The notes: generated by a model not told the origin, from the sequence alone. Positions 1-33,290 are shown, counted from the stretch's first letter. The stretch is 64,000 nt of DNA from Clostridia bacterium (GCA_017466375.1 JAFTUH010000035.1:5555-69554); one strand, 5' to 3'. Translations and numbers: made by a program.

Positions 1-2143
1 CTTCGATGTTGCTGATATCTTTCGCCTGTGCATTGCCGGAGAGGACTTTGACAGTCACGTTTCCGTTTGCGGCGATTTCGGGGACACGGACGAGGAAGTT
101 TTCGCCGTCATAGTAGTGGTAGAGGATCTCGCTGTCAAGGAGGAAGCGGACGTCAGCGTAATTCTCCGCAAGGGAGGAGACGCCAGCCACCTCGGGCGAG
201 ACGGAAACGATCGCATCCGTTCCGACAGCATCCGTGCCGTTGTCGATCCGAATCGCAGATTCCGTAGCGAAAGAGGTATCGCCGCCGCCGAAAACATCTT
301 CATAGTACGCATCAATCATGCCGTCCAGCGGAGCGGTGAAATCGGCATCCGTCGAGCTGTGCAGCGTGCAGTGCACTTTGATGTATCTGCCCGTTGCCTC
401 GAAATCGTACAGATAGGTGTACATACCGTCGCGCAGAAGCTTGAAGGACTCCACCTCTGTGTAGGTTTCGTTATCGTCGCTCGTCCAGATTGTGAGGTTG
501 TTCGAGTTCAGTCGGCATACCGTGTCGCTGTCCTTGAGGACGATCACGTTGACTGTTTTAGCTTCCTTCAGATCGCGAACGATACTGTTGTTGTTCTCGT
601 CGAACGTGAATTCGGGCTGATCGGTCGGTTTGGCAACTCCCTTGTACGTGGCAGTATCCTTGCGCACGACGAGAACGTCCTCTTGCGGATTGAGACCGGG
701 TACGAACACGTCAATCGACTTGGAGGTACCGAGGGAGGGAGCCACAGCCGTAAGCGTGATCTTTTTACCGCTTGCTGCAGGCTGGGTCACCTTGCCCGTT
801 GCGGGATCAATTACGGCGGGATCGGAGGAAGACCATTCAATGTCAACAGGGGAAGTGAAGTGCTTGTTGGCAAAAGAGGTGACGAGATTCATGTCATATC
901 TGACAAGCGTCTGCTCGTTGCGCATCTTGCGGATCGTTTCAAACGAGATAGAATCCACAATGCTCTCGCCGTACTCCTTGCCGACGGAGATGCAGGTGAC
1001 GTCGATATCGAAATTGTCCTCTGCGCTCTTGGCAATTTCGGTGCTTCGAAGGAGATTGAATACGATGTTGTTTTCTCCGATCGTATCATGTGCGGTCATT
1101 TCCGCGTTCTCAAATACAGCAACCTGTTCGCCGTCGATATAGAGGATAATATCGCCGTCCGTAGTCCACTTCGTTTCAATGTGGAAGGTATCGCCCTCGT
1201 ATTTGTTCAGAATATACGTGCGGTCGCGGTCGGCGTCACGCAGGGAAAAGACGAGACCGATATCGGTGTTGACAATCGCCATGGTGACGTACGTGGTGCC
1301 TTTGTCACCGGCAGCGGAGATGTACCAGTTGAAGCCGGAAACGATGTACGGATAGAAATCGTTATCGACGCCGAGGCGGTACTCCGGCATGGATTTCGCA
1401 CAGAAGAAAAATCCGAACACTGTATCAGCCGTGCGGTCGCCGAGCGGGGCGTACGTGTCACCCGCATAGGTGAGACGGGAGTACGGTGCGAGCGGATTAT
1501 TTCCGTTCGGATCATAGCGGTCAAAGAAATTATAGCCGCCGGTGATGGTTGTAATGTTCTGGTTCGGCGTAGCCTTGGACTCGGGGTGAACGATGCGCAT
1601 ACCGCCGCGTCGGATGCCCGAGTGATTGTATACTTTGCTAGGATTGTCTGCAATGAACCATTCCTTGGAGGAGAGCACGACCGTGCCTTTCCAGACCGTG
1701 CCGTCTACCGTGATTTCGGCGGGAATCTCCGTTCCGTAATCGTTTACGGTGACACCGATTACGGAGAGATCAATGCCGTATTCCGTAGCCTTTTTGTTGG
1801 TAGCGCTTTTGATTTCTGCATTGCTTTTGGTGATCTCCGTGCCGTTCAGTTTAATCGTGACGGATTCTTTGTTCGGCGTGCGCGTAGTAAGATACAGGGT
1901 AGTCATATTCCAACGCGCACCGAGAAGCACCTCACCGGTGAGAATTGTATGGACAGCCCAGCCTTCTTCGGTGAGCTTGCCGTTAACGCTGATCTTCGTA
2001 TCGCTGTAGGATGCGTAGACCGTTTTGCCTGCAGAGGCTTCGAGTGCTGTGTCATCTGCCTGTACGGGCAGTGCGGGGACTGCACCGAGAAGCAAGACGA
2101 GCGCAAGCGCCGCTGATGTGATCTTTTTCCAGAATGCGTTCAT
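1..2143 (-). CDS. BNR/Asp-box sialidase-like multidomain surface protein, paralog P1 (N-terminal 714 codons only; gene continues past window start)
   Basis: Hand translation of the minus strand from the ATG at 2143-2141 (GGAG RBS upstream) stays open to position 1: MNAFWKKITSAALALVLLLGAVPALPVQADD... It is absent from the ORF track, presumably because there is no stop codon inside the window. It is collinear with P2. In the stretches I aligned by eye (e.g. 90-180 vs 4290-4375, 340-560 vs 4525-4745) roughly nine of ten bases match. Confidence 0.9.
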   Translation of the reverse strand, partial: MNAFWKKITSAALALVLLLGAVPALPVQADDTALEASAGKTVYASYSDTKISVNGKLTEEGWAVHTILTGEVLLGARWNMTTLYLTTRTPNKESVTIKLNGTEITKSNAEIKSATNKKATEYGIDLSVIGVTVNDYGTEIPAEITVDGTVWKGTVVLSSKEWFIADNPSKVYNHSGIRRGGMRIVHPESKATPNQNITTITGGYNFFDRYDPNGNNPLAPYSRLTYAGDTYAPLGDRTADTVFGFFFCAKSMPEYRLGVDNDFYPYIVSGFNWYISAAGDKGTTYVTMAIVNTDIGLVFSLRDADRDRTYILNKYEGDTFHIETKWTTDGDIILYIDGEQVAVFENAEMTAHDTIGENNIVFNLLRSTEIAKSAEDNFDIDVTCISVGKEYGESIVDSISFETIRKMRNEQTLVRYDMNLVTSFANKHFTSPVDIEWSSSDPAVIDPATGKVTQPAASGKKITLTAVAPSLGTSKSIDVFVPGLNPQEDVLVVRKDTATYKGVAKPTDQPEFTFDENNNSIVRDLKEAKTVNVIVLKDSDTVCRLNSNNLTIWTSDDNETYTEVESFKLLRDGMYTYLYDFEATGRYIKVHCTLHSSTDADFTAPLDGMIDAYYEDVFGGGDTSFATESAIRIDNGTDAVGTDAIVSVSPEVAGVSSLAENYADVRFLLDSEILYHYYDGENFLVRVPEIAANGNVTVKVLSGNAQAKDISNIE

Positions 2144-2184
2144 GTGATTTCTCCTTGAGAATGTTTTTTGTGGGACATAGATGC

Positions 2185-2214
2185 ATTATAGCAAATTGTT
2201 GCATGTATTGTCAA
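2185..2214 (-). promoter_or_regulatory. P1 promoter, sigma70-type with extended -10
   Basis: The minus strand reads TTGACA-atacatgcaacaatttgc-TATAAT (18-nt spacer, TGc immediately before the -10). It lies ~40 nt upstream of the ATG. Confidence 0.7.
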
Positions 2215-2302
2215 GCAAAAAATGAGTGAATTTTGTTAAAAAACAACGAAAATTTGTTGAATCGTAAAAACTCGATATTGTCCTGTAAAAATATGATATT
2301 TT

Positions 2303-2339
2303 TGCAAACAAAACACGGTCAGCCGTAAGACTGACCGTG
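2303..2339 (-). terminator. Intrinsic terminator after P2
   Basis: Stem cacggtcag/ctgaccgtg (2314-2322 / 2331-2339), followed on the minus strand by TTTTGTTTG. Confidence 0.8.
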
Positions 2340-2357
2340 CAGAGTTGTTTAGGCGGA

Positions 2358-5300
2358 TTATTTTTTGCGTTTTGCGAAGAATACGCCGGCAGCTGCAGCG
2401 CCTATGGCGATAACAGCACCTATGATGATCCAGAGCGTCGGGGATGCATTGTCCTTGTCACTGTCGGTAGAGTCGCCGGTGTTTGCGGGATCGCCTGTGT
2501 TGGCAGGATCATCCGTGTCGGGCGTAGTGGTGCCGGGAACAGATACAGATGCTACGGTAGGATATGCCGTGCCTGCATCCATGTCCTCGACAACAAACGC
2601 GTCGAGGTAATACGTAAGCGCCCCTTGGCATACGACATGCACGTAGCATACGTAAGCACCGATCTCCGCCTCTACGGGAACGGCAAAAGAATCACCGCCA
2701 TTGACGGAAAGCGTTGCGCTCGGTATATCTGCGGAAAGAGCGAGATCGAATTCAAAGTGGTTCCAGCCGTTCTTCAGTATGCCGTCCTTACTTTCACCGC
2801 GGAGAAGTGCAATCGAGTTGCCGCTGAGTGCAAAGCCGATCGGGGAAGCCTTGCCGTAATCGGGGCCGTGGGATGCTTCAAGCTCCAGCGTGAGACGCGC
2901 CTTCGTTACGTCCTCGATATACAGATCAAACGCGATCTTGCCGTCTCGTACCTCGGGGAGGGAACGGACAGCAGCGGCACCGGGGGTAAACATCAGCGAT
3001 TTCTCACCGACAGATGCCTGTGCGTTGGAAGTTTCAACCTGACCGCCCGTCGTTGCCCAGCCTTCATATTCCGTCGTGGAATTTTCAAAGGAGTCATACG
3101 CACCTTTCGTGCGGAAGAAGTAATCCATGAAATTGTAAACGTATACGAAGCGGTACTGGTTTCCTTCCGTGATCGAGTCGCTGATGGACGACACAAACAT
3201 GGTGTCACCGGCGACGTTCACATTCGGGTTCATGGCGTTGATGCAGTTGCTGTTGACCATGCCTTGATAATCCGTTCTGAGGAAGAGGTCCTGAATATCC
3301 GTGAAGTTGTACAGCCCGTCATAGGAGACAGCAACGTTCAGCGGATATCTTCTGTAGGAGCCGCCGCCGTAGACGTTGTTGCCGCCCCATATGATAAAGC
3401 TGTGACCGTCCATCTTGAAGAGTTCAGGCTGGGTGTTTGTAGCATAGATGTTGGAAAGTTCAGCCTCATCCGACCACGTTCTGCCGAAGTCGTAGGATAC
3501 GCCGTAAGCGAAGTGGAGCGTTTCTTCATATTGGCAGCGGGAGTAGAGGAACAGAACGCCGTCTTCATTTTCCATGACAGAGGGCTCACACAGACCGTGT
3601 TCACGGATATGATCCTGATCGTCACCGCCGTAGTAGCGGACAGCATCTGCGCTCATTGTCCAGGTTTTACCGTTGTCCGTCGTGTAGAGGACGGTCATTT
3701 CGCGGTGCTCATAGGGATTACCGTAGTGCTCTCTCATCAACTTGGAGTCGCGGGCTGTTGCGATGACAAAGTCCACATTCGGGCCCTCCTCGCCGTCGTA
3801 AGAGGAGACCTTAACAATATCGGAATACGTATGACGGAAGATATCGCCGGGGGTTTCATAGTTGATTTCCGCTTTGTGCCAGAGCTTACCGTTGTTGTCG
3901 GAGTATACGATGGCAGCCACATTTTCACCGTTTACCTTCTTATATCCTTGTACAAAAATGCGTCCCGTTACCTCATCGTAGCCTGAACCGTGCGGGTTTT
4001 GAAATACACCGTTGTTTATTCCCTGCATAATTCTGTGTGGAGATCTGGTGATACCGCCGTCCTGCGAGATAAAGTAGGTTGGCTGTCCATCCGCATGGAA
4101 GCCCATCAGCATACCGTTGTTCAGTTCAATGTAATATACGCCGCGGTAGCTGGAGTCCGTCTCGCGCGTGCCGTACATGACTTCATAGATCGCTTCGATG
4201 TTACCGATATCCTTCGCGTTCGCATTGCCGGAGAGAACTTTAACAGTCACGCTCTTGCCTGCCTCGATATCCGGTACGCGAACGAGGAAGTTTTCACCAT
4301 CGTAGTAGTGGTAGAGGATCTCGCCGTCAAGGAGGAAGCGGACATCAGCGTAATTCTCCGCGAGGGAGGAGACGCCTGCCACTTCAGGCGTGACCGTGGC
4401 GATAGTATCCATGATAGCGGTATCTGTGCCGTTGTCTATACGGATCGCAGATTCCGTAGCGAAAGCGGTATCGCCTCCGCCGAAAACCTCCTCATAGTAT
4501 GCGTTGATCATGCCGTCGAGCGGGGCGGTGAAGTCGGCGTCCGTCGAGCTGTGCAGCGTGAAGTGCACCTTGAAGTATCTGCCCGTTGCCTCAAAATCAT
4601 ACAGATATGTATACATACCGTCGCGCAGAAGCTTGAAGGATTTCACCTCGGTGTATGTTTCGTTATCGTCGCTCGTCCAGATCGTAAGGTTGTTCGAGTT
4701 CAGGCGGCAGACGGTATCGCTGTCCTTGAGGACGATCACATTCACCGCTTTCGATTCCTTCAGATCGCGGACGATACTGTTGTTGGTCTCATCTAATGTG
4801 AATTCGGCAACATCCAGCGCGGACGCCTTTCCTTTGTAGGCAGCGGTGTCTTTTCGCACGACGAGGATGTCCCCCTGCGGTGCGAGACCGGGAACGAACA
4901 CGTCAATCGATTTGGACGTGCCGAGGGAGGGAGCTGTTGCCGTGAGCGTGACGAGCTTCCCGCTTGCCGCAGGCTGGGTCACCTTACCCGTTGCGGGATC
5001 AATTACAGAAGGATCGGAGGATGCCCATTCGATTGCAACGGGAGTGGTGAAATGTTCGTTTGCAAAAGAGGTGACAAGATTCAGATCTCTTTTTACAAAA
5101 TCCTGCTCGTTGCCCTGATTGCGGATCGTTTCAAACGAGACGGAATCCACGATGCTCTCGCCATAGTATTTACCGAAGGAGAGACCGGTGACATTGATAT
5201 CGAAGGTATCCTCTTCACTCTTTGCCGGTTCCACGCTGCGCAGGAGGGTGAACAAAATGTAATTTGTGAAGATTGAGCTGTTTGCGGACATTTCCGCATC

Positions 5301-6350: not shown

Positions 6351-6387
6351 GAGAATTCTCCTCAATTTGATATTAAAATACATATTC

Positions 6388-6417
6388 ATTATAACAAAGC
6401 AAAATATCCATTGTCAA
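6388..6417 (-). promoter_or_regulatory. P2 promoter, sigma70-type with extended -10
   Basis: The minus strand reads TTGACA-atggatattttgctttgt-TATAAT (18-nt spacer, TGt before the -10). Confidence 0.7.
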
Positions 6418-6473
6418 GAAAGTATACGGACGGATTTAATTGCTCTTGTCCTTGGGTTTGATTTGAAAAGCGC

Positions 6474-6506
6474 AGAAAAACACGGCCAGCCGTCAGGCTG
6501 ACCGTG
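6474..6506 (-). terminator. Intrinsic terminator after P3
   Basis: Stem cacggccag/ctgaccgtg (one non-Watson-Crick position) followed by TTTTT on the minus strand. It is homologous to the P2 terminator. Confidence 0.75.
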
Positions 6507-6525
6507 CAGAAGAGTATTATGCGGA

Positions 6526-9500
6526 TTATTTTTTGCGTTTTGCGAAGAATACGCCGGCAGCTGCAGCGCCTATGGCGATAACAGCACCTATGATGATCCA
6601 AAGCGTCGGGGATGCATTGTCTTTGTCACCCTGTGTAGTGTCGCCGGTGTTTGCGGGATCGCCGGTGTTTGCGGGATCGCCGGTATTTGCGGGATCGCCG
6701 GTATTTGCAGGATCATCCGTGTCGGGCGTAGTGGTGCCGGGAACAGAAACAGATGCAACGGTAGGATATGCCGTGCCTGCATCCATGTCTTCGACAACGA
6801 ATGTATCGAGGTAATACGTAAGCTCACCCTTGCATACGACATGCATGTAGCATACGTAAGCGCCTACCTCTGCGTTCACGGGAACGGATACTGCTTCGCC
6901 GCCGTTGATCGCAAGCGTTGCGTTCGGCGTCTCATCCGTGAGGGCGAGATCGAACTCAAAATGGTTCCAGCCGTTCTTGACAGCGTTCATGATGACATCG
7001 CCGCCGAGCAGTGTGAGCTGATCCTCATAGAGGGAGAATCCGATCGGGGAAGCCTTGCCGTAATCGGGACCGTGGGAGGCTTCAAGCTCCAGCGTGAGAC
7101 GCGCCTTCGTCACGTCCTCGATATACAGATCAAACGCGATCTTGCCGTCTCGTACCTCGGGGAGGGAGCGGACAGCAGCGGCACCGGGGGTGAACATCAG
7201 CGATTTCTCGCCGACAGATGCCTGGGCGTCGGATGTTTCAACCTGACCGCCCGTAGTGCCCCAGCCTTCATACTCCGTCGTGGAGTTTTCAAAGGAGTCA
7301 TATGCACCCTTCGTACGGAAGAAGAAGTCGGTGAAATCGCTGACCCAGATGTTGCGGAAGCGCTCGCCGCCCATCGTGTCGTCACTGATGACGGTCACCT
7401 GCATCTCGCCGTCATCGTAGAGGAAAACATTCGGGTTCATGGCGTTGATACAGGTGCCGTTGACCATACCCTGATAGTCTGTTCTGAGGTAGATATCCTG
7501 AATAGCCGTGAACGTCAGGAGATTGTCATAGGAGATAGCAACGTTCATAGGATATCTTCTGTAGGAGCCGCCGCCGTATACGTTGTTGCCGCCCCAGAGA
7601 ATGAATTCGTTACCGTCTGCCTTGAAAAGTGTAGGCTGCGTGTTGGAGGTGTAAATGTTGGAAAGCTGTGCTTCCTCCGTCCACGTCTTGCCGAAATCGT
7701 ACGAGAAGGCATATCCGAAGTGGAGAACCTCTTCGTACTGCAGGCGGGAGTAGGCAACCAGTACGCCGTCAGCCGTTTCCATGCATACCTGCTCGCAGAG
7801 ACCGTGCTCCCATTTGTGGATGGTGTCGTCTCCGCCGAAGAAGCGAACGGCGTTCGTGCTCGAGTTCCATGTTTTTCCGCCGTCGGTCGAGTAAAGGGAG
7901 AAAAGCTCGGAGTGCTCGTACTGATGTCCGTAGTACTCCTTCATTTCTTCAGAAGGACGTCTTGTGATAAGAACGAAGTCCACGTTCGGCCCTTCGCCGT
8001 CGTAGGCAGAAACCTTTATGATATCGTCGTAGGACTGAAGAATACGGTCAACTTCATATTTAAAGTTGATTTTTGCTTCCGTCCAGAGCTTGCCGTTGTT
8101 ATCGGAGTACATGATCTTAAACATACTCTTGCCGTTTTCGGGATGCACTCCCTGGACGAAAATACGTCCTGTTACGTCGTCATAACCTGTTCCCATAGGC
8201 TGGGTAAGAACATCGTACGTGCCGCCTGCCGGGAAGAGGTTTGTTCTGGATCTGCCGTTATTCTCGACAAAGTAGTAGGCAAATCCTGTGTTCTCCAAGG
8301 CTTGACCCTGTGTGTTGAACCGCAGACCGTTGTTCAGCCTAACGCTACCGCCGGGGTGGTAGTCAGAGGAGGTTTCGCGCGTACCGTACATAACCTCGTA
8401 AAGAGGCTCGATGTTTGAAATGTCTTTGGCATCCGCATTGCCCGAGAGAACGGTAACCGTTACACTTTCGCCTGCCGGAATATCGGGAATACGCACGAGG
8501 AATTTCTCGCCGTTGAACGCATGATAGAGGATCTCGTCGCCGAGCAGGAAGCGGATGTCGGCGTAGTTTGCATCCAGACACTTTGCACCGGTTTCCTCGA
8601 TGGTGACAGGGGTGAGTACATCCATCATGTCGTCGGTATTCTCGTTTTTGACAGAGAATGCGGAGGTGGTTGCAAATGCACTGCCGCCGTCACCGAAGAC
8701 GTCTTCGTAGTATGCCTCGATCATGCCGGGGATCGGTGCCGTGAAGGTAGTATCCGTTTTGGTATGGAGCGTAAAGTGAACCTTGATATAGCGTCCGGTT
8801 GCTTCAAAATCGTAGAGATATGTATACTGACCGTCTCTCAGAAGCTTGAACGGCTTTACCTGTGTGTAGGTCTTGTTGTCGTCACTTACCCAGATCGTAA
8901 GATTGCTCTCGTTCAGCCGGCAGGAGTCGTCACTGTCTTTCAGTGCGATGACGTTTACCGTTTTCGATTCCTTCAGATCACGAACGACACTGTTGTTCGC
9001 TTCGTCAAAGGTGTAGTAAGGCGCATCCGGAACGGTGGCGCGGCCTTCACTTGTGTTGATATCACCGCGCACGACCAGTACGTCTGACTGCGGGTTAGAT
9101 CCAAGCACATATACATCAATGGATGTGGTCGATCCTATAGACGGTGCCGTTGCCGTGAGCGTCACGGACTTGCCGTCCGTTTCGGGGCGCGTTACCTTTC
9201 CGGTCGCAGGATCAATCACGTCAGGATCAGAGGACTTCCATTCGATCGCAACAGGCGTTGTAAAATGCTTGTTTGCGAAAGTGGTGACGAGATTCAGATT
9301 GTAGTTGACGGTCAGCGGGTTGCCGCGGTTGTTGCTGATGGTATCGAACGTGAGGGAGTCGAGCAGCGTATCGCCGTGGCTCTTACCGACGCAGACTCCT
9401 GTGATATCGATATCAAAGTTGTCCTTCTCGCCTTTTGCGCTCTCTTTGTTGCGCAGAAGGTGGAAACGGACCATGTTTTCGCCGAGATCCCAACGGGACA

Positions 9501-10569
9501 TTTCGGCATCCTCAAAGAACGCGACCTGCTTACCGTCGATGGAAAGGATAAGGTCGCCATCCTTTGTCCATACCGTCTCAACGTAGAACGTGTCCCCGAG
9601 GAACTTGTTCAGCGGATACGTGCGGTCGCGGTCTGCATCGCGGAGGACAAAGACGAGACCGAGCTCCGTATTGATGATGGCCATGGTAACGTAGGGAAGC
9701 TCCTCCCATTCGAGAGATTTTCCCGTTATATACCAGTTCATTCCGCAGGTAGTGATGTAGGGGTAATAGTCGTTATCCGTACCGAGAGGATACACGGGCA
9801 TGGAGTTGGCACAGAACGTGAATCCGAGCACAGTATCTGCGGTGCGGTCACAGATCGCTTCAAACCCGCTTCCCTGGAAATACAGAGTGGAAGAAACGGA
9901 GGGCGGATTTTCGCCGGTTGCACTGTAGTGGTCGTAAAATTTGTATCCGCCGGTCGTTGTTGCAACGCCCTGGTTGTCGGTAGGCTTGCATATCTCATGA
10001 ACGAACTGACCGGCCTGGGTACGGACACCTGCATAACCGGCAGAGGCGCTCGGATTGTTCGCTGCAAACCATTCGGTAGAGGTGAGAAGAACCGAGCCTG
10101 TCCATACGGTGTCTCCGATCGAGATTTCAGCGGGGATCTCTACGCCGTAATCCTTTACGGTGACACCGATCGCGGAGAACGGTACGGAGATTTCCGTACT
10201 GTATTTGCCGGTAGCGCGAACGGTGTAATTTTTCATTTTCGCATTCGACTTGGTGAGCTCCGTTCCGTTCACAGTGACAGAAACACTCTTTTTCTCCGGC
10301 AGGTGTATACCAAGATACAGATTTTCTGTATCCCACTGCGCGCCGATAAGGGCACCGTCATCCGCACGTGTGGCAAGCGCCCAGCCGCCGTCGTTGAATC
10401 TGCCGTTTACGGCAATTTCAGCATTCGCAAAGGACGCGCGCACGGTAGACATGCCAGCCGATTCGGCTGCCTGTGCTTCATCTGCACGGACGGGTACAGC
10501 GGGCAGTGCGCCGAGAAGCAGAAACGCGGCAAGCGCTGCCGATGTGATTTTTTTCCAAATTACGTTCAT
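6526..10569 (-). CDS. BNR/Asp-box sialidase-like multidomain surface protein, paralog P3 (1347 aa)
   Basis: Track ORF. GGAG RBS and signal peptide MNVIWKKITSAALAAFLLLGALPAVPVRA. Asp boxes SDNNGKLW, STDGGKTW, SYDFGKTW. The C-terminal tail is identical to that of P2. Confidence 0.93.
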   Translation of the reverse strand: MNVIWKKITSAALAAFLLLGALPAVPVRADEAQAAESAGMSTVRASFANAEIAVNGRFNDGGWALATRADDGALIGAQWDTENLYLGIHLPEKKSVSVTVNGTELTKSNAKMKNYTVRATGKYSTEISVPFSAIGVTVKDYGVEIPAEISIGDTVWTGSVLLTSTEWFAANNPSASAGYAGVRTQAGQFVHEICKPTDNQGVATTTGGYKFYDHYSATGENPPSVSSTLYFQGSGFEAICDRTADTVLGFTFCANSMPVYPLGTDNDYYPYITTCGMNWYITGKSLEWEELPYVTMAIINTELGLVFVLRDADRDRTYPLNKFLGDTFYVETVWTKDGDLILSIDGKQVAFFEDAEMSRWDLGENMVRFHLLRNKESAKGEKDNFDIDITGVCVGKSHGDTLLDSLTFDTISNNRGNPLTVNYNLNLVTTFANKHFTTPVAIEWKSSDPDVIDPATGKVTRPETDGKSVTLTATAPSIGSTTSIDVYVLGSNPQSDVLVVRGDINTSEGRATVPDAPYYTFDEANNSVVRDLKESKTVNVIALKDSDDSCRLNESNLTIWVSDDNKTYTQVKPFKLLRDGQYTYLYDFEATGRYIKVHFTLHTKTDTTFTAPIPGMIEAYYEDVFGDGGSAFATTSAFSVKNENTDDMMDVLTPVTIEETGAKCLDANYADIRFLLGDEILYHAFNGEKFLVRIPDIPAGESVTVTVLSGNADAKDISNIEPLYEVMYGTRETSSDYHPGGSVRLNNGLRFNTQGQALENTGFAYYFVENNGRSRTNLFPAGGTYDVLTQPMGTGYDDVTGRIFVQGVHPENGKSMFKIMYSDNNGKLWTEAKINFKYEVDRILQSYDDIIKVSAYDGEGPNVDFVLITRRPSEEMKEYYGHQYEHSELFSLYSTDGGKTWNSSTNAVRFFGGDDTIHKWEHGLCEQVCMETADGVLVAYSRLQYEEVLHFGYAFSYDFGKTWTEEAQLSNIYTSNTQPTLFKADGNEFILWGGNNVYGGGSYRRYPMNVAISYDNLLTFTAIQDIYLRTDYQGMVNGTCINAMNPNVFLYDDGEMQVTVISDDTMGGERFRNIWVSDFTDFFFRTKGAYDSFENSTTEYEGWGTTGGQVETSDAQASVGEKSLMFTPGAAAVRSLPEVRDGKIAFDLYIEDVTKARLTLELEASHGPDYGKASPIGFSLYEDQLTLLGGDVIMNAVKNGWNHFEFDLALTDETPNATLAINGGEAVSVPVNAEVGAYVCYMHVVCKGELTYYLDTFVVEDMDAGTAYPTVASVSVPGTTTPDTDDPANTGDPANTGDPANTGDPANTGDTTQGDKDNASPTLWIIIGAVIAIGAAAAGVFFAKRKK
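6643..6714 (-). repeat. 18-bp in-frame tandem repeat, 4 copies (DPANTG x4) in the P3 linker
   Basis: The plus strand reads gccggtgtttgcgggatc repeated with minor variants. The protein reads DDPANTGDPANTGDPANTGDPANTGDTTQG. Confidence 0.9.
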
Positions 10570-10607
10570 GTGATTTCTCCTTAGAATTTCTTACATGATG
10601 TATTGCC

Positions 10608-10637
10608 ATTATAACAAATTGTTGCGTACAATGTCAA
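10608..10637 (-). promoter_or_regulatory. P3 promoter, sigma70-type with extended -10
   Basis: The minus strand reads TTGACA-ttgtacgcaacaatttgt-TATAAT. The spacer is nearly identical to that of the P1 promoter. Confidence 0.7.
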
Positions 10638-10813
10638 GAGGAAGTTGTGCAGAATTTGTGAAAAATTGCGTTATTATCACAACACGAGAAAAAGAGAGTA
10701 TTGACCTTGAAAATTGTGTTTTTTTGGTCTGCAGTTTTCCTCTGCAACAAGGACTACAGCACAATTATAGCATGATTTGCTGACAAGAGTCAATGCGCAT
10801 TTGTCGGGCAAAT

Positions 10814-10849
10814 TTATAAAAAGGACTGCCGTTGAAAACGGCAGTCCTT
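10814..10849 (-). terminator. Intrinsic terminator after P4
   Basis: A 13-bp stem aaggactgccgtt/aacggcagtcctt with a 3-nt loop and a T-run on the minus strand. Confidence 0.85.
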
Positions 10850-10854: not shown

Positions 10855-13800
10855 TTATGCGGGTTTCTTTTTGGATTTTACAGCGATGAAGATAACTGCT
10901 CCAATGATTACGGCAGCACCTGCACCGATGCCGATCCAGAGTGCCGGAGAAGACTCACTCGAACCGGGCGTTACGCCGGGATCCACAGGCGTGGGATCAG
11001 CGTATTCGGCCCAGGAGAGGATGACGGGTGCGTCGGTCGGAACGTTGACGTACAAGCCGTCCTCGCCTTCGAATACGGAAAGAAGCTTTCCGAAATCATC
11101 CGTCTTGCGGTCATCATCTGTCATGAGAACCAGTGCGCGGAACGCGTGCGTACTTGCCGCTGTTCCTTCGGGATAAGCGAATTTGACAGTCATGCCTGCA
11201 GGCGGAATGTCATAAGTCGTAGCGTCCGCCCACGTGTCACCGCCGTCCTTGGAGATGATCGGGGAGAGAGAGTAAATTGCCGTGTTTTCAGCAAGATAGG
11301 TCTCGTCGGCACCTGCAAGCACGAAGCCCTGCATAGCGGCAGTGAATGCGGCGGTGTCATCGTAATTCTCGGAAAGCGCATCCGTAAGCTCGGTGAACGC
11401 GGAGGCTTCTGCGGAGACGATAATATCGGGCACGAACGAGTTGTCTTCGTCAATGATGAGGAACTCGTCGAGATAGTATGTAAGTTCGCCGAGACCGCGT
11501 ACGTGAACGAATGCAGCATAGTCGCCGATTTCGCTGTTTACGGGAACGGTGATGTTCTCGCCGCCGTTTACGGAAAGGGAAGCGGCAGGCTTTTCGTTCA
11601 GCATATCCAGCGAAAATTCAAAGTGGTTCCAGCCGTCCTTCAGATTGAGGGCAACAGCGGAGTCAGCACCGAGGAAGGTTACCTTATTGCCGTTCAGCTG
11701 GAAGGCAATCGGTGCGGCAAGACCGTACTCAAATCCGTAGGAGGACTCAAACTCAAACTCAAACTTCGCCTTGTCCACGTCTTCAATGAACAGATCGAAC
11801 GAAACCGTGCCGTTTTGGATGTACGGGATTGAACGGTTGGCAGAAGCACCGGGGGTAATGCACATGGAGTATTTGCCATCAGATGCCTGTGCATCGGAGT
11901 GAGCGATCTCACCGCCCGTCGTTGACCAGCCTTCCCATTCGGGATCTGTTTGCTCAAAGGTGTCGTATGCGCCTCTGGTTTTGAAGAAATAGTCGAGGAA
12001 GTTGTTGATGCGAAGTGTGTTCATCTTGCCGTTTGTGGCGGAGTTGGTGAGGAGGATGCAGTCGCCGGACTTGGATATCTGCGTGTTTGTGTTGTCGACA
12101 GCGGTTGCGGTCGTCATACCCTGAAGTGCCGTCTTGGAGAAGAGATCCAGCACGCCTTCAAACGTCATCAGATTGTCGTAGGAAACACCAATCGACAGGG
12201 GATAACGGCGGAACGAACCCTGACCGAACATATTGTTGCCGCCCCACATCATGAACTGATAATCGCCGAAGTTGAACAGATACGGCTGCGTATTGACGGA
12301 GTAAACATCGGAGAGCTCAGCTTCCTTAGTCCACGTCTTACCGTAATCGTAGGAGAAAGAGCGGCAGAGCGTGTATACGTTGTCATACTGGCAGCGTGAG
12401 TAAACGACGACGGTGCCGTTTTTTGCCTCCAGAATGTGTGCCTCGCAGACGCCGTGCTCACGGGTATGCGCGTGCTCGCCCTGTGCTTCGCCGTCGTAGA
12501 AGGCGATATCATCCGGACTGAGCGTCCATGTTTTACCGTTATCCGTCGTGTATGCAACGCGTGCAACTGCGTGACCGTAGCGGTTGTTGTAATGCTCGGA
12601 TACTGCGGGGGATTCAGTGTTCAGAACGTGTACGTAGTCTACGTTCGGACCGTCGCCGTCATTACAGGAAAGTCGGGCGATCTGCGCGTAGGAGAGCAGA
12701 TACGTGGATTCGTACTCACCGGTCTGCGTAAGCGGAGCATGCTTCCAGCTTCTGCCCATGTCATCAGAGTACATATAGTGCGTCATCAGACCGATATTAT
12801 TGCCACCGCCGTCACGGATTCTGGTGTAGCCGGTTACAATGAGACGGTCTGCAGCTTCGTCATAGATCGCGCCTTGCGGTACGCAGAGATAAGGTGCAGA
12901 TCCGACTGCGGTCAGGTAACCGCTCCAGCTTCTGCCCTGGTCCTCGGAGAAGCAGAACTTAAAGGGGGTCTCGTAGTCTGATTGTGCGGCAAAGGCGAGA
13001 ATCCGTCCGTCCGGAAGTGTGGTCGTGTAACGTGCGGTGAGAGACGGATCCGTCTCAACCGTACCGTAAACGATCTCATATACGTTCGTCTTGTTGGAGA
13101 TATCCTTTGCGTTCGCGTTGCCGGAGAGAATTTTCAGAGTAACGGAAGAATTCTTCGGAATCTTCGTAACACGGACATAGAAGTTCGTGCCGTCGAAATA
13201 GTGATACAGCATCTCGCCGTCGAGATAGAAGCGAACGTCTGCGCTGTCAGATGCAGCACACTGGACGCCGGCATCGGCAGGGGAGATCTTTTCAATGGAA
13301 TCAAACTTCGCTGTATCGGTGTTGTTTGTCAGCGTGTAGCTGCTCTCGGTTGCGAATGCCGAACCGTTATCACCGAATACATTCTCATAGTACGCATCGA
13401 TCATCTCGTCGAGCGGACCGATGAAGTCGCAGTCTCTCTCGGTGTTGGTTGTGCAGTGCACCTTGATGTATCGACCGGTTGCCTCGAAATCGTACAGATA
13501 GGTATACATTCCGTCACGCAGGAGTTTGAACGAAGGAACCTGCGTATAGGTTTTGTTGTCATCGCTCGTCCAGATGGTGAGCATCGTTTCGTTCAGCTTA
13601 TTGATCTCGTCGGAGTCCTTCAGCGCGATTACGTTAACCGTCTTCGACTCTTTCAGATCACGGATGATACTGTTGTTCGAGGTGTCGAGCGTGAACTCGT
13701 AAACATCCTGAACGGTACCCTTGCCTTCGTATGCTGTTACGTCGCTGATAACAGCGAGAACATCGCTTTCGGGAGCAAGTCCCTTAACGTACAGATCGAA

Positions 13801-15327: not shown

Positions 15328-15357
15328 ATTATAGCAAATTGACGATTGTTTTGTCAA
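15328..15357 (-). promoter_or_regulatory. P4 promoter, sigma70-type with extended -10
   Basis: The minus strand reads TTGACA-aaacaatcgtcaatttgc-TATAAT. Confidence 0.7.
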
Positions 15358-19792: not shown

Positions 19793-19944
19793 GGGTATCT
19801 CCTTTATATAAAAATTTTACTGCTTACATTATACAGTATTTACCGAAAAAGAGAAAGAACTTTGTTTTCAACAAAAGTGCAGTTTTTGGAAACATTCGGG
19901 TGATACAGGAACAACCGGCAATTTCTGTACAGTGTGCTGTATTA

Positions 19945-19973
19945 ATTTTAGCAAATAGTCGGGTAATTGTCAA
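19945..19973 (-). promoter_or_regulatory. P5 distal promoter candidate
   Basis: The minus strand reads TTGACA-attacccgactatttgc-TAAAAT (17-nt spacer, TGc before the -10). This gives a leader of ~150 nt. A second TATAAT at 19828-19833 lacks a good -35. Confidence 0.55.
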
Positions 19974-20023
19974 TACAGTATTTCCTGTTTGGCGGATTAA
20001 CCCGAGATTTGAGCAATAGAACC

Positions 20024-20056
20024 AAAAAAAGCCGGCCGACAGAAGCCTGCCGACCG
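20024..20056 (-). terminator. Probable intrinsic terminator after P6
   Basis: A 9-bp stem with two G-U wobbles on the minus-strand RNA, followed by GC and T7. Confidence 0.55.
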
Positions 20057-20065
20057 ACCGGGGAT

Positions 20066-23000
20066 TTATGCGCTTTTCTTTTTGGATTTGGAGATCATCA
20101 GAACAGCGATCACTGCGATTACGACTGCAGCTGTGCCGATAGCAATCCAGATACCGACGGGGAAACCGTCTTCTGCGGAATCACCGCCGATCGGATCTGT
20201 GCCGTCGGGATCACCGGAGGAGACATCAGAGCCGTCGGGATTGGGTGCTGCGCCGGCGGATACAGTGACTGCGGGAGCACTGTCCAGATCCTGAATCAGG
20301 AAAGAGTCAACGTAGTGCGTCTGCGTATCCAAAGAGGAGAACGAAACAAACGTCGCGTATGCGCCGACCTCTGCGTTGACAGGAACGGAAGCAGCCGCAC
20401 CGCCGTTTACCGAAAGGGAAGCGGAAGGCGTTTCGCTGTCCATGGCGAGATCAAACGAGAAGTGGTTCCAGCCGTTCTTCAGATCCAGCGTGACTGCGGA
20501 ATCCGCGCCGAGGAAATGCGCCTTGTTTCCGTTAAGCGTGAAGGCGATCGGCGCTGCCTCGCCGTACTTGCGGCTGAAGCCTGCCTCAAATTCAAACTCG
20601 AGCTTTACGCTATTCACGTCCTCAATGTACAGATCAAACGATACAGCGCCGTTCTGCACCTGCGGAATAGAACGGACTGCGTTTGTACCGGCAGTCATAT
20701 ACATGGACTTGGTGCCGTCGGTGGCAAATGCATCGGAGATACCGATTTCACCGCCGTCGATCATCCAGCCCTCATACTTGACGCTGCTGTTTTCAAAGGA
20801 GTCGTATACGCCCTTCGTTTTGAAGAAATAGTCCTGATAGTTGTTGATTCGGATCGAACGAAGATCCCATCCGACATACAGATCATCACCGATAACAGCC
20901 GCCTTCGGGTTGACAAGGTCGCGCTCCTCGCTGACGCGCAGACCCTGGAAGGATGTGCGGGAGAAAGCATCCTGAATGCCTTCGATTTCCATCAGCGCAT
21001 CGTCATAGAAAATACCGATATTCATGGGATAGCGGCGGAAGGAATCCTGACCGTACAGCGTGTTGCCCGCCCACAGCATGAAGTTGTATCCGTTATCCGA
21101 CCACATTTCCGGCTGTGTATTGGTGCCGTATATGTCGGAGAGTTCAGCATCCTCCCACGTTTTTCCGTAGTCGTGGGATACGGCGATTGCCAGCTTGGTC
21201 AATCCGTCGAACTGACAGCGCAGATACGCAACGATATCGCCGTTCGGTGCTTCGAGAAAGGCACCCTCGCTGAGTCCCATCTCACGTCTGTGAACGCCTT
21301 CACCGCCGTGGAAGAAGATCTCGTTATCACTCAAATACCACGTTAAACCGCCGTCATTCGTGTAAATCGTGCGGCTTGACGTGATTTCGTATCCTGTGTT
21401 ATACTCATCAGTCATAGCATCGGAGAAGTGGTGAACCATGAAGATATAGTCTGTGTTCGGACCTTCTCCGTCATAGATGGATGTCTGAATAATGTCGCAG
21501 TAGGAGTAAAGGAAGTTCGGAATCTCACCGTTGGGAGCGATAAACTCTGCCTTTTCCCAGTTTTTGCCCATGTCATCCGAGTACATAAAGCTGGTTTCGC
21601 ACTTGCTGTAATCGTTCGGACCGCCGCTCGGGTCATGGTAGAAGGTGTTGCCGGCGAGGATAATTCTGCCGCTTTCTTCATCCTGGTACATACCGATCGG
21701 ACGGGTAAGAAATCCATACGAACCAACACCGGCCTGGTTTCCGATCCAGGTGTAGCCGTTGTCCTTCGAAAGGCTGTAAAGGAATGTGCCTTCCTCGTAC
21801 AGTGTGCTGTTTCGGAAGCTCATGAGCGTACCGTTCGAGAGAGGCAGAACCCAGCGGGATTTCGGCGGATTGCCGAGATAGGTATGTCTGGTTCCGTATA
21901 CTGCCTCGTAGACGTATTCCTTGTCGGAGATATTCATAGCATCGGCGTTGCCGGAGAGCACTTTCAGCGTCACAGCACCGTTTGCCGGGATCTCCGTGAC
22001 GCGGACTTCAAAATTTTCACCGTTGTAGTAGTGATACAGAAGTGCATCGCCGAGATAGAAGCGAACGTCGGATTTATCCTCCTTGAGACAGTTGACACCT
22101 GCCTCAGCGGGGGAGATGATGACGGCGGTATCGTACTGAACGGCAGCAGTTTCGTTGGTGACAGTCACAGCACTTTCCGTTGCAAATGCGGTATTGCCTG
22201 CGCCGAATACGTCTTCAAAGTACGCGTCGATCATGCCGTCAAGCGGGCCGATAAAATCGGAATCCGGGATATAGTGGGATGTGCAGTTGACTTTAATATA
22301 TCGACCGGTCATTTCAAAATCGTACAGATATGTGTACTGACCGGCGCGGAGAATCTTGAAGGAGCCGCCATCGGTGTATGTTTTGTTGTCCTCGCTTGTC
22401 CAGATCGTGAGCATGCTTTCGTTCAGACAGGTAACATCGTCGCCGTCTTTCAAAACGATTACATTGACCGTTTTCGATTCGCCCATGTCAAGGATTATAC
22501 TGTTGTGTGTCTGATCGAGTGCGTATTCGTGTACATCCACAAGCGTTCCGACGCCACTGTGTGCGGCGATATCGTTGTAAACTGTCAGGATATTGCCGGC
22601 GGGCGAGAGTCCCTTGACAAAGATTTCGATTTCCTTCGATGCGCCGTCGGAAGCCTTGGCGGTCAGCGTGACGAGCTTTCCGTTTGCAGCCGGGCGGGTG
22701 ACCTTGCCGGTTGCAGGATCAATCACGGAAGGATCAGAGGACTCCCACGTAAGCTTGACGGGCGTTTCAAAATGCGGATGGAAGAAATCCTTCATCAGCG
22801 TGAGACGCTCAGTAACCGAGTACTGATTGACGTTCTTATCGACGCTGCCCTGAATCATGGGGAAGCTGACGTAGTCAACAGGCGACTCGCCGTAATACTT
22901 ACCGATGGCAAGGCCGGTTACGTCAATATCAAAACTGTCAGCTTCGGAGGCAGGGGCTTCGTGGTTTCGGGTAGTACCGATCGTAACTTTAGCGGAACCG

Positions 23001-24061: not shown

Positions 24062-24106
24062 AAATTTACTCCTTACGGGGTTTGTGGTTTTAGTTTAACT
24101 GTTAAT

Positions 24107-24135
24107 AGTATAAAAGAAAAAACGGATGTTGACAA
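24107..24135 (-). promoter_or_regulatory. P6 promoter candidate (weaker match)
   Basis: The minus strand reads TTGTCA-N17-TATACT. Confidence 0.4.
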
Positions 24136-24221
24136 TGCTTTTAAGAGACAAAAAATTCTTGTTAATGTCCGAAAACATTAAGTACAGAAAAAGGGCGCAG
24201 GCTGTGATTTTATTGGAAACG

Positions 24222-24258
24222 ATAAAAAGAGCACGGTCACCCCTTCGAGCGACCGTGC
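24222..24258 (-). terminator. Intrinsic terminator after P7
   Basis: Stem gcacggtc/gaccgtgc followed by TCTTTTTAT on the minus strand. Confidence 0.75.
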
Positions 24259-24264
24259 GGTGGT

Positions 24265-28608: not shown

Positions 28609-28665
28609 GGAACTCCTTTTTGCAATTTTGCGGATTTTTTTGTGCGGATTGCACTTGGCAAATCT

Positions 28666-28695
28666 ATTATAACAAGTGAGTTTGATATGTGTCAA
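28666..28695 (-). promoter_or_regulatory. P7 promoter, sigma70-type with extended -10
   Basis: The minus strand reads TTGACA-catatcaaactcacttgt-TATAAT. Confidence 0.7.
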
Positions 28696-28780
28696 TGGAA
28701 AAAATGATAAATATTTATCAAAATATCCTACGGATTTGTATAATCTTAAGAGTAGGGTGTTTTACAAAAGACTGACAGAA

Positions 28781-28817
28781 TGCAAAAAGCACGGTCAATC
28801 ATACGACTGACCGTGCT
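28781..28817 (-). terminator. Intrinsic terminator after P8
   Basis: A 10-bp stem agcacggtca/tgaccgtgct followed by TTTTTG on the minus strand. Confidence 0.8.
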
Positions 28818-28824
28818 GTCTGTT

Positions 28825-31800
28825 TTATGCGGATTTTTTTGAGAATTTCTTGCCGATCACAATCGCGACTGCCGCGATCACAATAACGCCTGCGCCGACG
28901 CCGATCCACAGAGGTGCGGAGGATCCGCCCTCACCGGGAGTACCGGGGGTATCGGGAGTACCGGGAGTGCCCGACGTGCCGGGATCGGTTGTGTCGGGGA
29001 TCTCAGCGACCTGTGTCCATGCGAGGAGAACGGGGGAGATGCCCTTCAGCGTGACGTACAGACCGTCTTCGCCCTCTGTGATCTCGGGCATCTCGTGTCC
29101 GCCGATCTCCGTTGTGCGGAAATACGAGTTTGCCGTGTACATTTGCAGCAGTTTGAACTCATGCGATACCGCTGTCGTGCCTTCGGGATACGCAAATCGT
29201 ACCGTCATACCGTCCGTATAGAGATCGTCTGGTTTGGCTGTCTTCCACGTTTTGCCGTTATCACGGGAGTATTCGATGGTGATATCGGCAATCTTGCTGT
29301 TTTCAGCCGTGTAGCCGTCACCTGCTTCCGCAAAGAGGAGCGACTGCATATCCGCGTTCATTGCGGCAACGTCCGTGTACTTGTCGGACAGGGAAGCGGG
29401 AACCTCGGTAAGTTCACTCTCAACTGCATTTGCGAGATCGGTCGGGTAGAACGCGGGATCGTCATCAATTACGAGGAACGCATCCAGATACGTTGCGTTC
29501 TCACCGAACGTGCAGATGTCTACAAACGTGACGTAATCGCCGATTTCAGCGTTCACGGGAACGTCGATCGCCTTGCCGTCGTTGACGGTGAGCACAGCAC
29601 TCGGTGTATCGGAGAGCAGGGAAAGGGCGAATGAGAAATGGTTCCAGCCATTCTTCAAGCCGGCATCCACTGCCTTGTCAACACCGAGGAACGTGATACC
29701 GTTTTTGTCTACTGTCATGCCGATCGGTGCAGCCTCACCGTATACGTCGCTGTACGCGCTTTCAAGTTCGAGTTCAATATGTACGTTCTTCACGTCTTCG
29801 ATCCACAGATCAAAGGAGATCTCACCGTTCTGGATGTACGGAACCGAGCGGACAGCGCACGCAGAAGGAGTGAAAAGCATGGACTTGTCGCCGTCGGTGG
29901 ATTTATTCGTGCTGACGGTGACCATGCCGCCCGTAGGCGACCAGCCTTCGTATGCGACCGACGAATTTTCGAAGGAATCGTACGCGCCTCTCGTGCGGTA
30001 GAAATAATCCTCGAAGTCGTCAATGCGGATGACGAACATGCCGTCACCGGAGGTGGATGCGATCATGCTGCCGCCGATCACCTCGACGAGCGGGTTGGTG
30101 ATGTCCGTTCTTGTGCCGGTCGTCATGCCCCACAGCGCCGTTCTAGAATACACGTCAAGGATATTCTCAAACGTGTCCATGTTGTCATAGGAGACAGCCA
30201 GATTCAGCGGATAGCGTCTGTACGAGACGCCGCCGAGGACGGTGTTGCCGCCCCACATGAGGAACTTGCCGTCATTGTACTCAAACAGGATCGGCTGGGT
30301 GTTTGTCGCATAAACATCGCTCAGTTCTGCCTCCGTTGTCCACGTCAGACCGTGATCGTAGGAGAATGCACGGGCGAAGTTGTCAACGTTGTTGTACTGA
30401 CAGCGGGAGAGGACAACGAGCGTGCCATCGTCTGCTTCCAGAAGCGTCGGCTCACAGCATCCGGTCTCTCGGTTGGAGTGGCTGATACCGTGGGGGTAGA
30501 CGATTTCGTCAGCTCCGAGCGTCCACGTCAGACCGCAGTCGGTCGTATACGCAACGCGCGTTACGTTGAGATCCTCTTCGCTTTCATGATCCTGACAGCT
30601 GAGCGGAAGAACAAAGTCAACCCCCGGACCGTCCTCACCGTCATAGGAGGAAATTTTCACGATGTCGGTATAAACGAGGAACCAATTGCATTCTTTACCA
30701 AGGTTGGTCAGCGGTGCTTTTTTCCACATTCTGCCCATGTTGTCGGAGTACATAAAGTTGGTGACCAATGTCTCATCCGGATGGATAAAGCCCTGCACGA
30801 GAATGCGTCCTGTTTCGTCATCGTAGCATTCACCCTGCGGTACGGAGAGATAGTTGTTACTGCCAATTGCATCCATCGGAACGGTCCACGTTCTGCCCTG
30901 ATCGTTTGACATACTGTACGTGAACGGCGTGCCGCCCGATCCCTTGTTGTTGAGCGACAACAGACGCCCGCCGGGGAGCTCGAGATAGTAGCGTCCGTGC
31001 GTGACGTAGCCGTCGTACGTCTCACGCGTACCGTAGGTGATCTCATACACGGATTCCTTGCAGCTGATATCCGTTGCATCCGCGTTGCCGGAGAGAACGG
31101 TCAGCTCGACTGTGCTGTTCTTTTCGATTTTCGGGATTCGAACGAAGAATTTCTCTCCGTCGAAGTAGTGGTAGAGAAGCTCGCCGCCGAGGAAAACGCG
31201 CACGTCCGCACGGTTGTCGGCGAGCGTGTTTACACCGAATTCATCGGGCGTAAATGAGGCGATCACATCGTACTTGTCTGCATCCGTATCGTTGTTTACA
31301 GTTGCCTTGCTTTCGGTTGCAAACCTCTTTCCGCCGTCACCGAATACGTCACTGTACGAAACGGTGATGATGTCGGTCAGCGGAGCGGTGAAATCGGAAT
31401 AATCCGTATCGTGCGTGGTGCAGTGGACTTTCAGATATGCACACGTTGCTTCAAAATCATACAGATACGTATACTCGCCGTCTCTGAGGAATTTGAACGA
31501 GTCGATCTGCGTGTACGTTTTGTTGTCATCGCTTGCCCAGATGGTGAGCATCGTTTCGTTCAGACGGGTGGTCGTATCGCTGTCTTTCAGCGTGACGGTG
31601 TTGACCGTTTTCACTTCACCCAGCGAATAGACAAGGCTGTTGTGATTGGAGTCGAGCGAGAATTCGTACGTGTCAAGTACCTCGCCTGCACCTTTTGCCG
31701 TGTTCTCGTCATCGAAAACAACAAGTGTCTGTGCCGTCGGATTCTTGCCCTGAACGTATACGGGGATCACTTTTGTTATGCCGAGATCGGTGAACGTAGC

Positions 31801-33213: not shown

Positions 33214-33261
33214 GGGTAGACTCCTTTGGTTTTTGTTTGCAAAATATGCGTTACGATATGA

Positions 33262-33290
33262 ATTTTATCAAAAAAGCAAAAGAGTGTCAA
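33262..33290 (-). promoter_or_regulatory. P8 promoter, sigma70-type with extended -10
   Basis: The minus strand reads TTGACA-ctcttttgcttttttga-TAAAAT (17-nt spacer, TGa before the -10). Confidence 0.65.

Follow-up and report, generated by a model that had tools for sequence, protein, structure and literature searches.

The 64,000-nucleotide (nt) stretch of DNA analyzed here (the window; Clostridia bacterium, GCA_017466375.1, JAFTUH010000035.1:5555-69554) carries in its first half a head-to-tail array of giant sialidase-like surface protein genes, which we designate P1 to P8 in order of their coordinates (Table 1). An earlier note on this DNA had placed their start codons at 2143, 6350, 10569, 15276, 19792, 24061, 28608, and 33213, and open reading frame (ORF) listing and translation agreed: all are ATG codons opening co-oriented ORFs on the minus strand. 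The seven complete copies, described as 4.0 to 4.4 kb long, span 3993 to 4422 bp, encode 1330 to 1473 amino acids (aa), and contain zero internal stops, and their start-to-start distances (4207 to 4707 bp) match the proposed period of ~4.2 to 4.7 kb. P1 runs off the edge of the window, and the suggestion that the array might be longer was borne out by an 86,475-bp contig in ENA that encodes the P2 protein and has 16,350 bases in common with the window, with 1 mismatch. Beyond the window edge, this contig carries the complete P1 (1321 aa), a further copy that we call P0 (1450 aa), and another copy cut by the contig end, which brings the array to at least 10 copies.

The gene order was assembled independently in four ENA samples (the source-like contig and three further ones), and a search of related genomes revealed orthologous arrays with differing copy numbers in two metagenome-assembled genomes (MAGs). 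In GCA_045577175.1 (JAZNHT010000023.1, "Eubacteriales bacterium"), at least seven copies are arranged as an AGE-family epimerase gene followed by orthologs of P8, P6, P5, and P4 (75 to 85% identity) and then at least three P1-P3-like copies, and GCA_054276695.1 (JAZPMV010000035.1) has at least five tandem copies. With orthologs recognizable across MAGs and ortholog dN/dS ratios of 0.12 to 0.15, the duplications predate the species carrying the orthologous arrays. The paralogs are old, judging from their mutual identities (41 to 76%), and every copy is under purifying selection, with copy number changing through gain and loss.

All-vs-all comparison gave pairwise protein identities of 41 to 76% among the paralogs. 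Similarity was highest between neighbors, as the earlier note had claimed (P1/P2, 76%; P2/P3, 65%; P4/P5, 64%; P6/P7, 54%), with the remaining pairs at 41 to 50%, and the copies grouped as (P1, P2) with P3, P4 with P5, and P6 with P7, while P8 and the off-window P0 formed deep branches. The motifs said to be shared were also found, namely, the REMG...EAPNGDIV motif in P6 and P7 and a common signal peptide in P4 and P5; P1, P2, and P3 do have common signal peptides, but the common tails attributed to them are confined to P2 and P3, the C-terminal tail of P1, visible on the longer contig only, being different. P2 and P3 also contain a 300-nt tract with 92% nucleotide identity (2826-3125 versus 7030-7329), against their overall identity of 65%. 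Their last 33 aa are identical, and a DPANTG repeat occurs two times in P2 and four times in P3 (regions 2358-3125 and 6526-7329). These features indicate local gene conversion and repeat slippage.

Each array gene appears to be an independent transcription unit, because each has its own predicted promoter and hairpin terminator. We scanned for the sigma-70 consensus TTGACA-18-(TG)-TATAAT and scored sites by the number of matches out of 12; as previously described, seven genes have a near-consensus promoter and P6 a weaker candidate, and a GGAG ribosome-binding site lies downstream of each. Terminators had been reported after P2 to P8, and the scan found six of them (P2, P3, and P5 to P8; hairpin plus T-run), the hairpin after P4 being found by folding. 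A second promoter-like site (TTGACT-18-TATAAT, 11/12; 10764-10793, minus strand) lies past the P4 terminator and ~155 nt upstream of the main P3 promoter, in an upstream region ~100 nt longer than most; it could be the promoter of a small transcript or a relic of a lost copy. The leader of P5 is unusually long (~150 nt; 19793-19945, minus strand), holds a second -10-like element, TGTATAAT, and has no Rfam match. No Rfam family and no tRNA was detected in the window, and a comparison of the eight upstream regions with that of the gntR gene described below yielded, as candidates for a common operator, only promoter elements and A/T-rich tracts.

All copies have the same layout, consisting of a Sec-type signal peptide, ~400 aa of beta-sandwiches, an aBig_2 domain, a NedA-type F5/8C galactose-binding module, a DUF2341-like sandwich, a beta-propeller, a C-terminal beta-sandwich, and a transmembrane anchor. 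Pfam models place aBig_2 at aa ~410-490, the F5/8 type C module (NedA-like galactose-binding model) at ~520-600, DUF2341 at ~675-740 (marginal, and above the threshold only in P4, P5, and P7), and BNR_2 with its Asp boxes at ~820-1040, with scores near or under the Pfam threshold. The collinear multidomain architecture proposed earlier therefore stands for aBig_2, F5_F8_type_C or F5_F8_type_C_2, BNR_2, and BNR, which were found in all copies. The labels CBM9-like and Laminin_G_3 were dropped, as hidden Markov model (HMM) searches recovered neither.

Residues 28-400 and 1075-1300 had no sequence match in Pfam, NCBIfam, or PDB; for the N-terminal ~400 aa, this held for Pfam even at an E value of 1 and for profile searches of PDB. 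No NCBIfam model matched P5 or P8, the two copies examined. An AlphaFold 2 (AF2) model of the N-terminal half (predicted local distance difference test [pLDDT], 86.7) contains beta-sandwiches only, for which Foldseek returned weak multidomain jelly-roll matches (template modeling [TM] score, ≤0.3). Toward the C terminus, every copy follows the pattern [S/G]-x-P-x-x-W, hydrophobic transmembrane helix, and Lys-rich tail, and the LPXTG sortase motif is absent from all copies. An extra domain of ~120 aa precedes the anchor in P0, P4, P5, P7, and P8 (in P8, aa ~1290-1410, window positions ~28980-29345) and is lacking in P1, P2, P3, and P6, so that the paralogs fall into two length classes; it carries an Asp-box-like motif, SKDGGDTW, and has a weak Reelin_subrepeat-B/BNR match.

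For the C-terminal half, the AF2 model of P8 aa 620-1300 (pLDDT, 84.3; predicted TM score, 0.82) comprises a small sandwich, a propeller with six four-stranded blades, and another sandwich, and the alignment contains four clear Asp boxes and one degenerate box. The best Foldseek match by a wide margin was AmGH181 (8AXI; E value, 2e-20; TMq, 0.55; TMt, 0.64), a sialidase of glycoside hydrolase (GH) family 181 from Akkermansia muciniphila, with 618 aligned columns that take in both the propeller and the sandwich following it; for GH33 sialidases, TMt was 0.41 to 0.48. A PDB search with the single P8 sequence gave no match, and profiles were required. The family profile matched sialidases only (best match, NanI; 1.7e-13), and a profile of blades 3 to 6 plus the C-terminal sandwich retrieved GH181 first (1.8e-7), while a profile of blades 1 and 2 gave ambiguous, register-shifted blade matches. 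In the profile alignment, E921 and R937 of P8 fall on E218 and R234 of AmGH181 with identical 16-residue spacing, and HMMER aligned R937 both to NanI and to GH181.

Residue conservation was assessed across 23 family sequences. D798, R803, Y848, D858, D866, E916, E921, R937, Q939, Y968, N971, W987, N990, R1000, and N1040 (P8 numbering) are invariant (23/23), and R741, within the motif R-[YW]-x-L-x-L-P-x-G, is present in P4 to P8 and in 19 of the 23 sequences; at the corresponding site, P0, P1, P2, and P3 have Q, S, V, and G, respectively. In the strand map of the P8 model, R741 is at the start of strand A in blade 1, E921 within strand A of blade 4, R937 at the end of strand B of blade 4, R1000 in the B-C loop of blade 5, and N1040 at the start of strand A in blade 6; we take these sites to correspond in topology to GH33 Arg1, Glu, Arg2, Arg3, and Tyr, respectively. 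Blade 6 has no conserved Tyr, the invariant N1040 standing at the start of strand A instead. The acid/base Asp of the blade-1 B-C loop is likewise absent, the loop being variable, without an acidic residue in P7 and P8, and an estimated 8 residues shorter than that of NanI. P1 to P3 have covarying substitutions (R741 to S/V/G, D1037N, T1039M, and R1063Y/W), which suggest a remodeled pocket, and the Gln of P0 at the Arg1-like position is reminiscent of GH181.

GH181 is a family of inverting sialidases in which the GH33 Tyr is replaced by His349-Gln350 and Arg1 by Gln367 (PMC10067855, PMC12018670). Its signature includes the invariant residues Asp345 and Glu218, and AmGH181 uses a single-displacement mechanism with the E218/Q350 pair (PMC10067855). 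AmGH181 (Amuc_1547; 8AXI, 8HLS) resembles the array family in its six-bladed Asp-box propeller with a packed C-terminal beta-sandwich, in the Glu-x16-Arg arrangement together with another Arg, and in the lack of a Tyr nucleophile, for which an amide is proposed in its place (Q350 there, N1040 here). Unlike AmGH181, however, the array family has T/V/M-Asn where the His-Gln dyad would be, keeps in most members the Arg1 of the RIP-like motif, and has no clear equivalent of D345, with no invariant Asp before the Asn; its proteins are also 2.5 to 9 times longer, carry N-terminal modules totaling ~700 aa, and have an anchor of the transmembrane, SLH, or dockerin type. With GH33 enzymes such as Clostridium perfringens NanI, Streptococcus pneumoniae NanA, and Micromonospora viridifaciens NedA, the family has in common the Asp-box propeller, a putative Arg triad (by topology) in P4 to P8, the Glu partner, the NedA-type F5/8C module, and a genomic link to nanA, but it lacks the Tyr nucleophile and the blade-1 Asp and has R-[YW]-x-L-x-L-P in place of the F/Y-R-I-P motif. 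Because the Tyr and Asp of GH33 and the His-Gln dyad and Gln-for-Arg1 of GH181 are missing, the family is neither a canonical GH33 nor a GH181 and, judging from alignment and model, blends features of both, with a putative Arg triad and an amide in the place of the Tyr.

The genomic setting also points to sialic acid. A gntR-nanA-AGE operon lies directly upstream of the array on the same strand, with the AGE gene next to P8. The top 31 PDB matches of the NanA-type protein were all N-acetylneuraminate lyases (best E value, 1.9e-45); the protein scored below the NCBIfam equivalog cutoff, and the AGE protein matched the N-acylglucosamine 2-epimerase model at 4e-109, also below the NCBIfam cutoff. 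A lyase followed by epimerization of N-acetylmannosamine (ManNAc) to N-acetylglucosamine (GlcNAc) constitutes the Bacteroides-type route of sialic acid catabolism.

An exhaustive HMM search of 1.84 billion cluster representatives recovered 139 proteins with the sandwich-propeller-sandwich core at an E value of ≤1e-30, many of them 1000 to 5200 aa long; family-profile scans relying on exact peptide patterns yielded two loci in metagenomes and one in genomes. The distant members are 30 to 43% identical and are anchored via SLH or dockerin modules. At two loci (L007 and L008), a GDSL esterase gene and a DHDPS-family aldolase gene lie immediately downstream of the family member (8174-9664 and 19245-20727, respectively), the two esterases being 66% identical, and at a human gut locus (L011), the neighbors are a GDSL esterase gene (13041-13676; esterase only confirmed) and a GH2 gene. 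The esterase and aldolase pair may represent a dedicated module for de-O-acylation and cleavage of the released sugar. At a further locus (L009), genes for a dockerin protein and a cohesin protein come after a dockerin-bearing member (7275-10284), which suggests the display of some relatives in cellulosome-like complexes; the same neighborhood includes an ABC transporter of five genes (SBP_bac_5), DUF386/YhcH, and a DHDPS-family gene. Because the aldolases of the relatives belong to a different subfamily, we infer for the family as a whole the release of a 2-keto-3-deoxy acid sugar, often O-acylated; N-acetylneuraminic acid (Neu5Ac) in particular is indicated by the window genes only. The sole source name found on any member was an automatic "exo-alpha-sialidase"; we found no characterized member, and neither the family nor a tandem array of this kind turned up in literature searches.

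Overall, we consider it probable, with modest confidence, that the array encodes extracellular, membrane-anchored, multimodular glycosidases of an uncharacterized exo-sialidase-like family in clan GH-E, and the fold, the conserved residues, and the genomic association argue to a similar degree for exo-sialidase-like catalysis. The earlier label of BNR/sialidase-like surface proteins is thus appropriate at the level of fold and context, given that profile matches were to sialidases only and that NanA and AGE genes are adjacent, but not in the sense of canonical GH33. In the mechanism that we envisage, each protein would be displayed on the cell surface, where the N-terminal beta-sandwich modules, including the F5/8C module, would bind glycan, and the propeller would cut off the terminal residue of a host or microbial glycan, a 2-keto-3-deoxy acid sugar that is most likely sialic acid (Neu5Ac or N-glycolylneuraminic acid [Neu5Gc], possibly O-acetylated). 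R937 and R1000, plus R741 in P4 to P8, would hold the carboxylate. Hydrolysis would be inverting, by single displacement and without a Tyr nucleophile, with E921 and N1040 placing a water molecule in the manner of E218/Q350 in AmGH181. Two enzymes encoded next to the array would process the freed sialic acid, the NanA-type lyase cleaving it and the AGE epimerase turning the resulting ManNAc into GlcNAc, with the GntR regulator in control.

The copies may be old duplicates retained for differing specificities, with P0 to P3, in which the Arg1 site is remodeled, perhaps acting on another sugar or linkage. Conservation between orthologs peaks in the propeller and the N2 domain (82 to 90%), two regions that rank among the most diverged ones when paralogs are compared (41 to 52%), whereas the F5/8C module is similar in all paralogs (61 to 63%), a pattern that would reflect a paralog-specific catalytic or binding specificity on a common galactose-recognizing scaffold. 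This divergence, its age, and the purifying selection all agree with the specialization proposed in the earlier note, in which the copies are tuned to different sialoglycans. A more specific version, which we hold only tentatively and rather doubt, is that the proteins constitute a new GH family in the sialidase clan, inverting, with a Glu/Asn-activated water and the full arginine triad kept, which would place it mechanistically between GH33 and GH181. The panel of at least 10 genes would then be matched to the diversity of sialic acids (Neu5Ac/Neu5Gc, O-acetylation, and linkage) or of microbial nonulosonates, and the P0-P3 clade would have switched sugar via R741, D1037, and R1063.

Several observations weigh against an exo-sialidase-like function. 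No sialic acid transporter, NanK, or NanE was found among the window ORFs scanned, and the DHDPS-family neighbors of the distant members are ~25% identical to the window NanA and form a separate subfamily that is not assignable to NanA. Identity to GH181 is 15%, with sequence similarity detectable over blades 3 and 4 only, and a profile of blades 5 and 6 had zero sequence matches in PDB; N1040 would be the equivalent of the GH33 Tyr and the GH181 Gln350 by strand topology and spacing. No conserved candidate for a general acid was found in the family, D1037 is Asn in P1 to P3 and variable across the wider family, and P0 to P3 lack Arg1. Sialidase activity is a prediction from sequence and model.

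In an alternative reading, the fold would serve another acidic keto-sugar or a different substrate, such as 2-keto-3-deoxynononic acid (Kdn), the 3-deoxy-D-manno-octulosonic acid (Kdo) or 3-deoxy-D-lyxo-heptulosaric acid (Dha) of plant rhamnogalacturonan-II, or the bacterial pseudaminic and legionaminic acids, with the paralogs covering sugars and not sialyl linkages. The noncanonical active site, the loss of Arg1 along with covarying sites in P0 to P3, and the unassigned aldolases beside distant members would all agree with this, as would the abundance of plant and microbial glycans if the samples are from ruminants, a source hinted at by the names of the records. BT_1020 (5MQR, deposited as "Sialidase BT_1020"), which we take to be a GH143/GH142 enzyme acting on Dha, is among the fold matches, but the match is weak (TM score, 0.23). 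The pairing of a NanA-type lyase with an N-acyl-glucosamine epimerase in the window, on the other hand, would be sensible only for N-acetylated nonulosonates such as Neu5Ac, and the conserved galactose-binding module suits Sia-Gal caps; a different sugar is, in our estimation, unlikely. It is also conceivable, but quite unlikely, that hydrolysis has been lost from the propeller, as in inactive Trypanosoma cruzi trans-sialidases, and that the array is a surface set of glycan-binding adhesins or lectins. Both the Tyr nucleophile and the acid/base Asp are missing, over half of each protein consists of binding-type beta-sandwich modules, and all the proteins carry a cell surface anchor. AmGH181, however, has sialidase activity even though it lacks the Tyr (PMC10067855), and the Glu/Arg/Arg/Asn set is invariant across relatives that are only ~30% identical. 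The repeated linkage to genes for catabolism of a released sugar (lyase, esterase, and transporter) likewise speaks for catalysis.

The alternative raised in the earlier note, a phase-variable or antigenically variable repertoire of which one or a few copies are expressed at once, draws on the many tandem paralogous surface proteins, the local gene conversion between P2 and P3 with their identical tails, and the varying copy number between related genomes. We nevertheless regard it as very unlikely. Each copy has a complete promoter and terminator, and zero recombinase-type Pfam matches were found among the ORFs scanned. An invertible switch was rejected, as no inverted repeats of ≥30 nt, promoter flanking or otherwise, occur in 1-36500. 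Moreover, paralogs that are 41 to 76% identical, each stably kept in orthologs at a dN/dS of ~0.12 to 0.15, are the opposite of rapidly diversifying antigens. The source data are short-read metagenome assemblies, in which a collapsed or chimeric repeat could in principle imitate an array, and the earlier note had allowed for an artefact. Because the copies differ by 24 to 59% at the protein level and their order was recovered independently in four assemblies, with synteny in the two other MAGs, this explanation is exceedingly improbable.

To our knowledge, bacterial sialidase repertoires are small and dispersed, usually with one to four sialidases per genome, and few families are known; C. perfringens, S. 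pneumoniae, and Akkermansia have 3 to 4 sialidases each. Such repertoires, and the trans-sialidase superfamily of T. cruzi, resemble the array in that each comprises several sialidase-like surface paralogs, whose specificities diverge or some of which have lost activity. The bacterial repertoires differ from the array in that the latter has, at a single locus, at least 10 head-to-tail copies with individual promoters and terminators, and the gene family expansion of T. cruzi (PMC3198458) is eukaryotic and tied to immune evasion. Bacteroidota polysaccharide utilization loci and canonical nan clusters (nanA/nanE/nanK/nanT/sialidase/nanS) also place extracellular glycan-cleaving enzymes beside a regulator and catabolic genes, with GDSL esterase partners as found beside relatives of the array family and, in the nan cluster, an N-acetylneuraminate lyase and a ManNAc-processing enzyme like those adjoining the array. 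Unlike polysaccharide utilization loci, the array has no SusC/D system and expands one enzyme family and not complementary families. Unlike canonical nan clusters, it has no transporter or kinase among the window ORFs scanned, the SBP_bac_5 ABC transporter and YhcH being found only at the relative's locus L009.

The genes seem to represent a sialidase-clan family with an undescribed active-site combination. The family amounts to ~140 sequence clusters of giant sialidase-like proteins among 1.84 billion representatives, and here it is expanded into a tandem array that is unusually large and, as far as the orthologs indicate, stably inherited. The breakdown of mucins and other host glycans hinges on a gate-keeping step, the removal of sialic acid. 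An active site without the catalytic Tyr yet with the arginines bears on how the inverting mechanism of GH181 is related to the retaining mechanism of GH33. Should activity be confirmed, the determinants of sialidase specificity could be mapped in the natural series that the ten paralogs form, and the series could also be a source of linkage- or modification-specific sialidases for glycoanalytics.

Table 1. Coordinates of array genes, upstream operon, promoters, and terminators in the window
Feature	Coordinates	Strand	Remarks
P1	1..2143	-	First 714 aa of 1321-aa paralog; remainder outside window
P2	2358..6350	-	1330 aa; Val at Arg1-like position
P3	6526..10569	-	1347 aa; Gly at Arg1-like position
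P4	10855..15276	-	1473 aa
P5	15455..19792	-	1445 aa
P6	20066..24061	-	1331 aa
P7	24265..28608	-	1447 aa; ortholog not found in related MAG JAZNHT010000023.1
P8	28825..33213	-	1462 aa; copy used for modeling; propeller ~aa 716-1070
P8 key residues			R741, E921, R937, R1000, N1040
AGE-family N-acyl-D-glucosamine 2-epimerase-like gene	33344..34564	-	Immediately upstream of P8
NanA-type N-acetylneuraminate lyase-like gene (DHDPS family)	34641..35561	-	
GntR/FCD-family regulator gene	35619..36254	-	Promoter-like site 36316-36288
P1 promoter	2185..2214	-	12/12 consensus, TG extension
P2 promoter	6388..6417	-	12/12
P3 promoter	10608..10637	-	12/12
P4 promoter	15328..15357	-	12/12
P5 promoter	19945..19973	-	11/12; ~150-nt leader downstream
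P6 promoter, weaker candidate	24107..24135	-	10/12
P7 promoter	28666..28695	-	12/12
P8 promoter	33262..33290	-	11/12
Terminator hairpin after P2	2313..2340	-	
Terminator hairpin after P3	6480..6507	-	
Terminator hairpin after P4	10814..10849	-	13-bp stem + U-run; -22.4 kcal/mol, z = -6.1
Terminator hairpin after P5	15420..15447	-	
Terminator hairpin after P6	20030..20059	-	
Terminator hairpin after P7	24231..24258	-	
Terminator hairpin after P8	28788..28817	-	

The remainder of the window is occupied by housekeeping genes (miaB-like, ylbF, mutS, mutL, tgt, clpX, clpP, tig, thrC, and others). Overlapping long ORFs occur at 43053-44222, where the plus strand encodes tgt (queuine tRNA-ribosyltransferase; E value, 1e-158) and a 389-aa ORF on the minus strand, with no Pfam match, is probably spurious. 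Two further GH genes lie amid the housekeeping genes, a GH43 gene (58407-59405, plus strand) and a GH20 beta-N-acetylhexosaminidase-like gene (44234-45928, minus strand), the latter of which would fit the foraging of host glycans.

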